Origin: Escherichia coli
GTDB taxonomy: Bacteria > Pseudomonadota > Gammaproteobacteria > Enterobacterales > Enterobacteriaceae
Reading direction: 5' to 3' (one strand)
Assembly (NCBI RefSeq): GCF_022846255.1
Contig: NZ_AP025682.1
DNA: 64,000 nucleotides
The notes under the pieces: model-generated
The model's database searches: none
What the model saw: only the letters and a program-made list of their open reading frames with translations
What the model was told of the DNA's origin: nothing
Made by a program: the position numbers and the translations under genes
Part shown: positions 20,600 through 24,850 of the stretch, piece by piece
Layout of the letters: every line of letters starts with the position of its first letter
Numbering within the stretch: position 1 is the first letter of the stretch

Positions 20600-21136
20600 T
20601 TAACTGCGCGGGTAATGGATGAGGGAATGAAAATGTACGGTTTGCTCCCCACCATTACGATAGACATGCGTGACGTCTGCAGCAAATCGAACGCCTTCCC
20701 CACAATTAAGGCTCTGCCATTCACCATCAACACACAGATCAAGTTGTCCATCAATGACGACGACATGTTCGATTACCCCCTTTTCATGGGGCGTCGATTC
20801 GCTTATTGCACCGGGTGCCATCTGAATCGAGAAGTGTTCAAAGCAGAGTTGTGGATCATAAGGAAACAGCGAAGTGATCACCATCGCCTGCCGTTGTGGA
20901 TCATAAACTGAAGGCGTAGAGGACTGCGGCGGAGAAATAAATGTTGAAAATGGCACGTTCAACCCGGTGGCAATTTTCCATAATGTCGCGACCGTCGGGC
21001 TGGATTCATTACGCTCAATCTGCCCTAACATCGCTTTAGAAACGCCCGTCGCTTCTGCCAGTCGCGAAAGACTCCAGCCGCGCTGCTGACGTAGTTGTTT
21101 AAGTGTGGTGGATAAAAAGCGAGCGAGATTTTCCAT
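20600..21136 (-). CDS. sutR: XRE-HTH plus cupin transcriptional regulator SutR/YdcN (178 aa)
   Basis: ORF track; N-terminal HTH (LRQQRGWSLSRLAEATGVSKAMLGQIER) with C-terminal cupin. Confidence 0.9.
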   Translation of the reverse strand: MENLARFLSTTLKQLRQQRGWSLSRLAEATGVSKAMLGQIERNESSPTVATLWKIATGLNVPFSTFISPPQSSTPSVYDPQRQAMVITSLFPYDPQLCFEHFSIQMAPGAISESTPHEKGVIEHVVVIDGQLDLCVDGEWQSLNCGEGVRFAADVTHVYRNGGEQTVHFHSLIHYPRS

Positions 21137-21227
21137 GCGACTCCTCCGGCAAAACGGAAGTTTATCACTTGTGCGTTATAACGGACAAATGCTACGGTAC
21201 CTGTACGTTATAACGCACGAGGTGACT

Positions 21228-22403
21228 ATGCGTCTGTTTTCTATTCCTCCACCCACGCTACTGGCGGGGTTTCTGGCGGTATTAATTGGCTACGCCAGTT
21301 CAGCGGCAATAATCTGGCAAGCAGCGATTGTCGCCGGAGCCACCACTGCACAAATCTCTGGCTGGATGACGGCGCTGGGGCTGGCAATGGGCGTCAGTAC
21401 GCTGACTCTGACATTATGGTATCGCGTACCTGTTCTCACCGCATGGTCAACGCCTGGCGCGGCTTTGTTGGTCACCGGATTACAGGGACTAACACTTAAC
21501 GAAGCCATCGGCGTTTTTATTGTCACCAACGTGTTAATAGTCCTCTGCGGCATAACGGGACTCTTTGCTCGTCTGATGCGCATTATTCCGCACTCGCTTG
21601 CGGCGGCAATGCTTGCCGGGATTTTATTACGTTTTGGTTTACAGGCGTTTGCCAGTCTGGATGGTCAATTTACGTTGTGTGGCAGTATGTTGCTGGTATG
21701 GCTGGCAACCAGGGCCGTTGCGCCGCGCTATGCGGTAATTGCCGCGATGATTATTGGGATCGTGATCGTTATCGCGCAAGGTGACGTTGTCACAACTGAT
21801 GTTGTCTTTAAACCCGTTCTCCCCACTTATATTCCCCCTGATTTTTCGTTTGCTCACAGTCTGAGCGTTGCACTCCCCCTTTTTCTGGTGACGATGGCAT
21901 CGCAAAACGCACCGGGTATCGCAGCAATGAAAGCAGCCGGATATTCGGCTCCTGTTTCGCCATTAATTATATTTACTGGATTGCTGGCACTGGTTTTTTC
22001 CCCTTTCGGCGTTTATTCCGTCGGTATTGCGGCAATCACCGCGGCTATTTGCCAAAGCCCGGAAGCGCATCCGGATAAAGATCAACGTTGGCTGGCAGCT
22101 GCCGTTGCAGGCATTTTCTATTTGCTCGCAGGTCTGTTTGGTAGTGCCATTACCGGGATGATGGCTGCCCTGCCCGTAAGTTGGATCCAGATGCTGGCAG
22201 GTCTGGCGCTGTTGAGTACCATTGGCGGCAGTTTGTATCAGGCGCTGCATAATGAGCGTGAGCGCGACGCGGCGGTGGTGGCATTTCTGGTAACGGCAAG
22301 TGGATTGACGCTGGCCGGGATTGGTTCTGCGTTTTGGGGATTAATTGCCGGAGGCGTTTGTTACGTGGTGTTGAATTTAATCGCTGACAGAAACCGATAT
22401 TGA
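21228..22403 (+). CDS. ydcO: BenE-family inner membrane transporter YdcO (391 aa)
   Basis: ORF track 21105..22403; start placed at MRLFSIPPPTLLAG (ATG 21228) with GAGGTG RBS. Confidence 0.88.
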   Translation: MRLFSIPPPTLLAGFLAVLIGYASSAAIIWQAAIVAGATTAQISGWMTALGLAMGVSTLTLTLWYRVPVLTAWSTPGAALLVTGLQGLTLNEAIGVFIVTNVLIVLCGITGLFARLMRIIPHSLAAAMLAGILLRFGLQAFASLDGQFTLCGSMLLVWLATRAVAPRYAVIAAMIIGIVIVIAQGDVVTTDVVFKPVLPTYIPPDFSFAHSLSVALPLFLVTMASQNAPGIAAMKAAGYSAPVSPLIIFTGLLALVFSPFGVYSVGIAAITAAICQSPEAHPDKDQRWLAAAVAGIFYLLAGLFGSAITGMMAALPVSWIQMLAGLALLSTIGGSLYQALHNERERDAAVVAFLVTASGLTLAGIGSAFWGLIAGGVCYVVLNLIADRNRY

Positions 22404-22442
22404 CATCCTCCACGCCCTGAAGGACGTGGATCCCTGCTACGT

Positions 22443-23651
22443 TCAGGCTGTCGCCTGAATCATTTCGGTGGGTTCCTGCTTCAACGGGCGGCCTGACTGC
22501 ACCATCTCTCCACAGGCAAGAACGGCGTGCCCCGCCGCTAAAATGTTACGAGCGCCATTTACATCGGCGTTCGCTGTATATCCACATACCTGGCATCTGA
22601 ATTTACTTTGTGACAGGCGGTTCTCTTTCGCTGTATGACCACAGTACGCGCAACGCTGGCTTGTATACGCTGGCGGAACAGCAAGCACCTGACCGCCACG
22701 CCAGAGCTGCTTGTACTCAAGCTGGCGGCGCATTTCATACCAGCCCTGATCCAGTATCGAACGGTTTAAACCTGATTTTGCCCGGACATTGCGCCCCGGC
22801 TGGCTGACCGTACCCGCTGCTGACTTTGACATGTTGCTGACCTTCAAATCCTCAATGACTATCATTGCGTGGTTTTTGCTGACGGCCGTTGTGACTTTGT
22901 GAAGGTAGTCCCTGCGGATATTTGCGATACAGGAATGCAGTCGCTGTATTTTGCGTTTCTGCTTCTGCCAGTTGTTGCTGAATTTGACCTTGCGGCTTAA
23001 CTGTCGCTGAAGTCTCGCCAGCGTCTTCTGGTTTTTCTGAAAACTGTTTACAGGCTCAAAGACTGTGCCATCTGACAGCGTGGCGAGTTTAGCCACGCCA
23101 GCATCCAGCCCGACCATTGATGCTGAAGGGTGAGCCGGAGTGGATACTTCACTTTCTGTCTGAATACTGATGTACCACTTACCGCAGGACTGGCTGACAG
23201 TGACATTTTTCACAACACCCGTGACCTGACGGCTATTCCGGTAGCGCATCCAGCCCAGTTTCGGCAGAAAAATACGGCTGTTTTCCTGATCGAGCTTAAC
23301 GCCCTGCGGGTAGCGGAATGCATCATTCTGTCCCCGCTTTTTGAATCGGGGAAAAGCAGCCCGCTTCCGGAAGAAGTTTTTGTAAGCCCGCTCAAGGTCT
23401 TTCAGTGACTGTTGCAATGGCTGTGAGGGAGAATCTTTAAGCCATTGCGTTTCAGTGGCGTTTTTCCACTCAACCAGCCAGGAAGCCATTTTCCCGTAAG
23501 GGATGTATTTATTACCGGCCTCATGATTCTCATTCTGAAGCGCCAGAGCACGATTGAAAACGAAACGACATGCGCCTGCGAAGCGCCTCATTTCACACTC
23601 CTGTTGACCACCTGGTCTTAACTGGAATTTAAATGCCTGTAATCGTTTCAC
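22443..23651 (-). CDS. insQ: TnpB (IS605 OrfB-family RuvC-like RNA-guided nuclease), 402 aa, apparently intact
   Basis: ORF track; N-terminal KFQLRP...NRALAL, C-terminal zinc-finger CAYCGH...CQVCG and RuvC-like segments. Confidence 0.9.
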
Positions 23652-23658
23652 AGGTCAA

Positions 23659-24164
23659 ATGATACTTTGGTCTGTGAAAAAAGAAACCGATATCCGGCGT
23701 GGAAGGCATTGTGTTTTCCTGATGCATGTTCAGCTGGTCTTTGTCCCAAATACCGACGCCAGATTTTTGACCATGACGCGACAGAAAAACTACGCACTTA
23801 CTATTCAAATGTATGTGCTGATTTTGAAGCTGAACTGGTTGAAATGGATGGCGAACCAGATCACGTCCATTTGTTAATTAACTATCCTCCCAAACTGGCG
23901 ATATCCAGTCTGGTAAACAGCCTCAAAGGCGTATCGGGTAGGTGACTGCGACGAGATCGACCAGATATTGCAGTCAGGTATTACTACAAAGGCGTTTTGT
24001 GGAGTCCTGGCTATTTTGCCAGTAGCTGCGGAGGTGCGCCAATATCCGTCATCCGCCAATACATTGAACAACAGCAAACACCTGGTCAGGTGGAAAACCG
24101 CGCCTTATATCCCCGCCCTGAAGGACGGGGTTTTACGGCGCACCGGATAAAAAGCGCCATCTAA
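23659..24164 (+). pseudogene. IS200/IS605 Y1 (HUH) transposase TnpA, disrupted
   Basis: Motifs split across frames: ...HVQLVFVP then KYRRQIF...DHVHLL...LKGVSGR, in-frame TGA at 23943-23945, then YYKGVLWSPGYFASSCGGAPISVIRQYIEQQ. Confidence 0.7.
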
Positions 24165-24181
24165 CGATGGCGCGTCTGGAA

Positions 24182-24850
24182 CTACTTTTTGTTAACGTCA
24201 AACATGGTGGCATCGGTCGCCATGTCATCAATAACTTGTTTAATATTTTCGAAAGCCATTGGCGTACTTTCGTTATTCAGGTCTTTACCTTCGCCCTGAC
24301 GAACGACTTTGATAACCGGTTTATTAGTCGCTGCATCAATCAGCTCACCTTCAAAATACAAGCGAGTATCCATGGTTCGGTGGCCTGTAGCCATTTGCGT
24401 CCCCGCTACCACTAATGCAACAGGAACCACTTCATAGAATTGCAGCCCTTCTTTACTGGTATCTACACCGGTAATGGCCCCACGGAAAATCAGACTACGC
24501 GGCCCAGCGGTGGTAACCAGTGGTTTACGCTGCGCTATCGCTTCTTTCATTTCGGTGTTGGTATAGTTCAAAATTTTATCCAGAACTTTCTGCCCTACCT
24601 GGGTAGAAGGTTTCGGTACCGGATAATAAGTGATTGGGTTCCAGACGATGCTGTCATATTTGCTTTGATCAAAACTCGGGTCTACCCAACGTAAAACAGG
24701 TTTACCTGTTGCCGAGGTTGTTTCTTTTAAATCAGAGTAATTGTTTAAAAAACCAGAATATTTATCTGGCTGGGTGATTTTAGAGGCACAACCAGACAGA
24801 GCCAACAAGCCGCATAAAGCTGCAACTTTCGCAAATGATGTGGTACGCAT
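24182..24850 (-). CDS. ydcL: lipoprotein YdcL (222 aa)
   Basis: ORF track; lipobox LALSGC. Confidence 0.9.
   Translation of the reverse strand: MRTTSFAKVAALCGLLALSGCASKITQPDKYSGFLNNYSDLKETTSATGKPVLRWVDPSFDQSKYDSIVWNPITYYPVPKPSTQVGQKVLDKILNYTNTEMKEAIAQRKPLVTTAGPRSLIFRGAITGVDTSKEGLQFYEVVPVALVVAGTQMATGHRTMDTRLYFEGELIDAATNKPVIKVVRQGEGKDLNNESTPMAFENIKQVIDDMATDATMFDVNKK

Follow-up and report, generated by a model that had tools for sequence, protein, structure and literature searches.

Identity of the insertion between ydcO and ydcL

Within the window (the whole stretch of 64,000 nucleotides that was analysed), the locus at 21105-24850 was examined. It consists of ydcO, an insertion with a tnpB gene and broken reading frames of tnpA, and ydcL. 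The genes and predicted features are listed in Table 1.

Table 1. Positions of genes and predicted features at the ydcO-ydcL locus of the window
Feature	Position	Strand	Basis
ydcO	ends 22403	+	ORF list
Predicted 16-nt guide UAUCGGUUUCUGUCAG, antisense to the last ydcO codons	22384-22399	-	invariant right-end terminus
Complete IS609 copy, 1747 bp, no target-site duplication; tnpB sense is the minus strand	22400-24146	-	empty-site comparison
Right end (RE), downstream of tnpB: hairpin ~22409-22430, GGAT 5' of the hairpin, terminal TCAA 22403-22400	22400-22442	-	relatives
Predicted scaffold of the omega RNA, covering the right end and the 3' end of tnpB	22400-22537	-	50-relative alignment A1
Predicted omega RNA helix	22537-22533/22527-22523	-	
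Predicted omega RNA helix	22516-22512/22479-22475	-	
Predicted omega RNA helix	22503-22501/22489-22487	-	
Predicted omega RNA helix, spanning the tnpB stop codon	22459-22453/22448-22442	-	
Predicted omega RNA terminal hairpin	22430-22422/22417-22409	-	
Linker GGAUGUCAA after the terminal hairpin	reaching 22400	-	
tnpB (insQ), uninterrupted ORF of 402 aa	22443-23651	-	ORF list; Pfam, NCBIfam, ISDra2 alignment
Broken tnpA reading frames	23659-24164	+	ORF list
tnpA pseudogene (Y1/HUH transposase)	23659-24089	+	Pfam Y1_Tnp, comparison with intact O157 tnpA
Left end (LE): hairpin 24111-24130, AAAA 24134-24131 directly 5' of the hairpin	24090-24146	-	empty site, hairpin analysis
TAM TTTAT (core TTAT), outside the element	24147-24151	-	common to several insertion sites
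ydcL	24182-24850	-	ORF list

Judged by its sequence, the insertion is the known element IS609 of the IS200/IS605 family, in the K-12-type form with insQ and a tnpA pseudogene. With 22300-24300 as the query, a megablast search of 5426 complete E. coli genomes returned the same arrangement, both flanks included, at 98-99.5% identity. At this locus in other genomes, insQ is named 'RNA-guided endonuclease InsQ/TnpB family protein' by PGAP, and tnpA 'IS200/IS605 family transposase', a pseudogene. The copy at the same site in NEB5-alpha, a K-12 derivative, was 99.0% identical over 2 kb with both flanks, and a genome comparison found a single place matching IS609 in the K-12 derivative sampled. The K-12 and window copies represent the same insertion in the chromosome and show strain-level differences only; one of these is a 1-bp deletion in tnpA after 23745, present in the window and absent from K-12. 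Copies at other loci in O157:H7 were 97.9% identical across the whole element and contain an intact tnpA, which PGAP labels 'IS200/IS605-like element IS609 family transposase'. The name IS609 as used here follows this annotation of the O157:H7 copies; it is the ISfinder name, and the K-12 locus consists of insQ (b1432) and a tnpA pseudogene. The element, both genes and the functional class of TnpB are all present in standard annotation already, and the case is an ordinary one.

The element has a Y1 transposase gene, same-strand subterminal hairpins, no target duplication, a match between TAM and left-end guide, and near-identity to IS609. The family assignment made in an earlier note on this DNA is borne out by the annotation, the Pfam domains and the ends.

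Ends of the element and target site

In an empty-site allele (L001) the sequence reads ...CCGATA|ATAAAAAGCG; both junctions abut exactly and no base is duplicated. The empty site of strain 3-72 reads ...GACAGAAACCGATA|ATAAAAAGCGCC..., and the window is identical to it through 22399 and then again from 24147. Since the flanks of the empty allele abut exactly, the insert runs from 22400 to 24146. The similarity of the window to copies at four other chromosomal loci is confined to these bases plus ATAAA. The ends of the element, TTGACATCC... and ...GCGCACCGG, are not inverted repeats. The insert from 22404 to 24170 proposed in the earlier note is real, with boundaries that had to be moved: the left one lay 4 nt inside the element and the right one 24 nt outside, within the stem of the ydcL terminator (24154-24173).

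IS609 inserted 3' of TTTAT in the tail of the ydcL terminator and inside the ydcO stop codon, without target duplication. The stop codon was split by the insertion: CGA TAA in the empty allele became CGA TAT TGA in the filled allele, the TGA being provided by the right end of the element. YdcO encoded by the filled allele (22397-22403) has one extra residue (Tyr) and a stop codon supplied by the transposon. Five independent insertion sites have TTTAT next to the left end, among them ydcO, ytfB-TetR, yajI/DUF3251 and yfaV-yfaY; in the latter three, ATAAA on the plus strand is constant and the opposite flank differs per site. At the ydcO locus the TAM TTTAT is the end of the T-tract of the ydcL intrinsic terminator (stem 24173-24154, minus strand), and any read-through from ydcL would run into IS609 in the tnpB-sense direction.

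On the minus strand the RE hairpin (22410-22429) reads CCACGTCC-TTCA-GGGCGTGG and the LE hairpin (24111-24130) reads CCCCGTCC-TTCA-GGGCGGGG. Both are directly oriented on the same strand and share an identical TTCA (UUCA) loop, with one compensatory pair (A-T versus C-G). The stem is better on the minus strand; a plus-strand reading of the RE hairpin, as in the earlier note, contains a C/A mismatch. The two hairpins with identical loop and compensatory stem change were found where that note had placed them, and both lie inside the true ends of the element. Their description as covarying holds for an alignment of 50 sequences (see below); within the window copy it amounts to one compensatory pair.

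For comparison, 80 loci with related elements were fetched (TnpB identity 58-94%). A left end could be recognised in 23 relatives, and in 21 of these the fourth TAM base changes together with the base just 5' of the LE hairpin. The combinations of TAM and bases 5' of the hairpin were TTAT/AAAA (11 relatives), TTAC/AAAG (8), TGAC/CAAG (1) and TGAT/CAAA (1), with 2 exceptions. The AAAA of the window presumably acts as a DNA guide by pairing with the TAM. At the right end GAAT is found 5' of the hairpin in most relatives and GGAT in others, and the terminal TCAA is invariant. As a sequence pattern, the covariation of TAM and left-end guide is the signature of an IS608-type mechanism, in which a DNA guide beside the hairpin reads the cleavage site (summarised in PMC10055086).

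IS608 of Helicobacter pylori, with its 'peel and paste' model, resembles IS609 in its Y1 transposase, its same-strand subterminal hairpins and the lack of duplication. In addition, both elements insert 3' of TTAY, have a right end in TCAA and carry a tetranucleotide matching the cleavage site 5' of each hairpin; the TAM is TTAT in IS609 and TTAC in IS608. According to what Barabas and colleagues reportedly described in 2008, IS608 pairs TTAC with AAAG and TCAA with GAAT.

Being GC-rich stem-loops close to gene ends, the hairpins might also be taken for generic intergenic palindromes (REP-like sequences or terminators) with no tie to a transposon. However, they are missing from the empty allele, they move with the element to other loci, and an alignment of 50 relatives shows them to be conserved and covarying, which together rule this out. 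In addition they lack a T-tract, the true ydcL terminator being a separate stem (24154-24173). This leaves the palindrome explanation with practically no probability.

Two further observations were made on the RE hairpin. The O157:H7 copy with intact tnpA (L002) has a mismatch in it (CCACG...CTTGG) at its position 414, corresponding to 22413 of the window, whereas the window copy with its dead tnpA has a perfect stem. In approximately 19 relatives (L029, L035, L040, L041, L048, L050, L053, L057, L060, L066-L069, L072, L073, L075, L076, L080, L082) an insertion of ~37 nt inside the terminal hairpin forms an extra branched stem, with the outer stem and the GGAGGATGTCAA terminus kept.

Decay of tnpA and conservation of tnpB

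Two fragments of tnpA were recognised by Pfam Y1_Tnp (E=1.8e-21 and 8.4e-9), and the intact homologue in L002 scored 145.7 bits with NCBIfam transpos_IS200 (cutoff 55). A base-by-base comparison with L002 showed that the window tnpA lacks one base after 23745, resulting in a frameshift, that a T to G change at 23944 creates a premature TGA at 23943-23945, and that the normal TAG stop has become CAG at 24087. The frameshift and the in-frame TGA had both been reported in the earlier note.

The gene was dead in every ydcO-locus copy sampled (n=12). Seven distinct inactivating lesions were present in these copies: TGA at codons 96 and 33, TAA at codons 76 and 62, 1-bp deletions at 23700 and 23745, and a 5-bp deletion at 23769-23773. 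None was present in tnpB. The TGA at 23943-23945 could not be maintained as a lesion common to all ydcO-locus copies, as 4 of the 12 lack it and have other lesions instead. Pairwise dN/dS of tnpA was ~0.3-1.8, with noisy values.

Copies at unrelated loci likewise combine a dead tnpA with an intact insQ. Individual lesions are shared between loci too: the 1-bp deletion at 23745 was found in the ydcO copy of the window and in one yajI copy, and the TAA at codon 76 (23883) in two ydcO copies and one yajI copy (recurrence set: L089, L088, L084, L085). This suggests gene conversion between copies, or mobilisation in trans of copies that were already dead.

The GTG start of tnpB and the ATG start of tnpA (23651-23659) are divergent and 7 nt apart, whereas the two genes of IS608 are co-directional. 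With start codons so close together, the promoter of each gene must sit within the coding sequence of the other; a consensus scan for promoters yielded nothing above the expectation from shuffled sequences.

TnpB contains the Pfam domains HTH_OrfB_IS605, OrfB_IS605 and Cas12f1-like_TNB, and scored 381.7 bits with NCBIfam guided_TnpB (cutoff 100). Using phmmer against the PDB sequences, it matched ISDra2 TnpB (8bf8/8exa/8h1j) with E=2e-54. Its RuvC residues D183/E268/D363 align opposite D191/E278/D361 of ISDra2, and a CxxC...CxxC zinc finger is present, so that the protein has the HTH/WED-REC part, the RuvC domain with its D-E-D triad and the zinc finger of a TnpB. It differs from ISDra2 TnpB, a member of the same family with the same catalytic residues (Karvelis 2021, PMC8612924), by an insertion of ~15 aa after the catalytic Glu. 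The intact TnpB of 402 aa proposed earlier is confirmed by these results.

In all 12 ydcO-locus copies tnpB is an uninterrupted ORF of 402 codons with unchanged catalytic motifs; TldR proteins have lost the RuvC catalytic residues, whereas the window and each of the 12 copies retain the full triad. A frameshifted insQ was found in at least one copy at another locus (L091). Pairwise dN/dS of tnpB was ~0.14-0.5, and the polymorphic codons among the 12 copies comprised 25 with amino acid changes and 16 with synonymous changes only. Purifying constraint on TnpB is real but only moderate. A contig of 2057 bp labelled Streptomyces mutabilis (L017, NZ_BMTT01000064.1) encodes a TnpB with 81% identity to that of E. 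coli; the contig is a tiny one of an actinomycete assembly, and contamination or very recent transfer seems the likely source.

Literature searches for IS609, insQ and ydcM returned no functional study of the IS609 omega RNA. The available text of one paper lists an 'IS609' TnpB among nine candidates that were purified.

A predicted omega RNA at the tnpB 3' end

The last 230 nt of the element were aligned for 50 of the related loci (alignment A1). A consensus structure was obtained with RNAalifold, extended by one helix across the tnpB stop codon, and evaluated by counting pairs. In A1, 93.1% of the cells were paired, versus 39-55% in controls in which the partners were slid by 1-3 columns. 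Changes on both sides were seen in 22 of the 37 pairs, and none of 500 shuffles reached the observed values. The best-supported helices extend from 22537 to 22409. G-U pairs are frequent (22424/22415 in the window is one of them), and therefore the structure forms on the tnpB-sense strand.

The covariation across the 3' end of tnpB and the right end is consistent with a guide RNA of TnpB (omega RNA): a structured RNA that would end at the transposon boundary, as its covariation and invariant terminus indicate. Across the 12 ydcO-locus copies this region varies less than any other part of the element, with 2 of 141 sites varying, versus 42 of 1111 in the rest of tnpB and 25 of 433 in tnpA. A minimum free energy fold of the single omega region sequence gave z=-2.7; its 5' half disagrees with the consensus, and the structure from the alignment was preferred.

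In an Rfam scan of 21800-24800 at permissive E-values, no family reached its gathering score. Three sub-threshold matches, all on the tnpB-sense strand, are leads and do not indicate membership: HgcC (RF00062; 22.2 bits, gathering score 50, E=0.03), sot0042 (RF02656; 17 bits, gathering score 88, E=0.2) and RAGATH-18 (RF03064; 25.4 bits, gathering score 44.9, E=0.096). In the available text of Gomes-Filho et al. (2015, PMC4615843), sot0042 and HgcC are RNAs of tnpB 3' ends with a UUCA tetraloop; according to that text, RNA-seq data of E. coli K12 also contain transcripts that overlap the 3' ends of tnpB genes, possibly from insQ. Like the omega region of IS609, the sotRNA/HgcC RNAs overlap the tnpB 3' end and have a terminal stem with the UUCA tetraloop, and the hairpin and the GGAGGAnGUCA that follows it align nearly base for base. 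However, with scores of 17-22 bits against thresholds of 50 and 88, the IS609 RNA is not a member of these curated archaeal families. The RAGATH-18 consensus (cCUguGGAGuG...CaCGaUGAAgcAGgAA) corresponds in nearly every base to the omega helix CCUGUGGAGAG...CCCGUUGAAGCAGGAA at 22473-22516 on the minus strand, and RAGATH-18 may be a fragment of TnpB omega RNAs.

By homology with the TnpB proteins of ISDra2 and Geobacillus, the tnpB transcript would be processed to an omega RNA of ~140-180 nt. ISDra2 and, as predicted here, IS609 share an omega RNA made from the tnpB 3' end and RE, a guide derived from the flank, and a TAM that equals the target motif of the transposase; the TAM is TTAT in IS609 and TTGAT in ISDra2.

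Predicted guide and prevalence of its target

In 71 of the 80 related loci the element ends in GGAGGATGTCAA, with at most 2 substitutions. Directly beyond this terminus the loci have unrelated sequences, which is what one would expect of a guide taken from the flank. In the 64-kb window GGAGGATGTCAA occurs once. The guide is predicted to start at 22399, because the element includes 22400-22403 (minus-strand TCAA); its length of 16 nt was assumed by analogy with ISDra2. The earlier note had rightly looked for the guide in the ydcO-side flank, and the bounds given there (22388-22403) are shifted by 4 nt relative to the guide predicted here (22399 to 22384). The guide flank is identical in 12 of 12 ydcO-locus copies.

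The 3' portion of the omega RNA (22399 to 22384) would guide TnpB to cut TTAT followed by TATCGGTTTCTGTCAG. This predicted target, TTAT/TTTAT plus TATCGGTTTCTGTCAG, is the exact sequence of the element-free ydcO/ydcL allele. The sole match to the target in the window is the flank itself. As this match is preceded by GTCAA and not by a TAM, no self-cleavage is expected at the occupied site.

Using a 200-nt probe across the right-end junction, the filled allele was detected in 3264 of the 5426 complete E. coli genomes. The empty allele, with perfect TAM and target, was detected in 2044 of the 5426 with a 200-nt probe across the empty site. Genomes with an empty site include O157:H7 strains that carry IS609 elsewhere.

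A guide directed against the empty allele agrees with the model of donor-joint targeting put forward by Meers et al. (PMC10055086). With tnpA dead, we infer that this model could act only via TnpA provided in trans or on empty alleles that arrive by recombination. It speaks against such a mechanism that excision in cis does not take place in the absence of TnpA; the classical role in retention would be idle unless another IS609 copy of the genome encodes an intact TnpA.

Discussion

The locus very probably contains a non-autonomous IS609 with a dead tnpA, an intact TnpB and a predicted omega RNA whose guide, taken from the ydcO flank, would be directed against the empty allele. The window copy would have been inherited vertically.

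The retention of TnpB can be explained in different ways. Selection may be keeping InsQ, together with its omega RNA, as an active nuclease that exerts a drive independent of the transposase, by which empty alleles that come in or arise by recombination are cut and converted, or excluded (the empty allele is carried by ~38% of E. coli); we regard this as a tentative proposal, possible but not what we would expect. A different explanation is that the element is an inert relic, decaying as a whole, in which insQ has merely not been hit yet and no functional complex of omega RNA and TnpB is formed. The loss of tnpA in every sampled ydcO copy would agree with this, as would a TnpB dN/dS well above that of typical housekeeping genes, the frameshifted insQ in one copy elsewhere, and the inactivity of IS608 TnpB in the assays of PMC10055086. 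A relic is nevertheless unlikely, since the 7 disrupting lesions are all in the 432-bp tnpA and 0 are in the 1209-bp tnpB, a division with a chance of ~(432/1641)^7 or ~1e-4 if lesions are uniform per base. The low variability of the omega RNA region and the catalytic residues kept in all 12 copies also argue against simple decay.

It seems very improbable that InsQ and its RNA have been co-opted as a domesticated host factor, for example for RNA-guided repression as by TldR or for control of ydcO or ydcL. Such a role could account for the constant chromosomal position in 60% of the genomes, for a TnpB that is kept after the loss of tnpA, and for an omega RNA antisense to the 3' end of ydcO. 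However, the RuvC triad is intact, unlike that of TldR, the insertion is polymorphic and not fixed, and dead tnpA together with intact insQ is also found at unrelated loci. Furthermore, the guide is simply the flank, as it is in mobile copies.

For a non-autonomous IS609 with a predicted guided nuclease, the analysis provides the precise ends, the TAM TTAT, a predicted guide and a covariation-supported structure of the omega RNA, all for the resident TnpB of the main laboratory organism. Heterologous TnpB assays call for caution if the host is a K-12 derivative with its own insQ, for example NEB5-alpha. The 3264 filled and 2044 empty genomes, in which the empty allele is a perfect target, represent a natural experiment, with repeated loss of tnpA and tnpB kept. 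The case neatly illustrates a nuclease that outlives its transposase, and the question is directly testable in K-12. If the drive proposed above is true, it would mean allele drive in natural E. coli populations, K-12 laboratory strains included.
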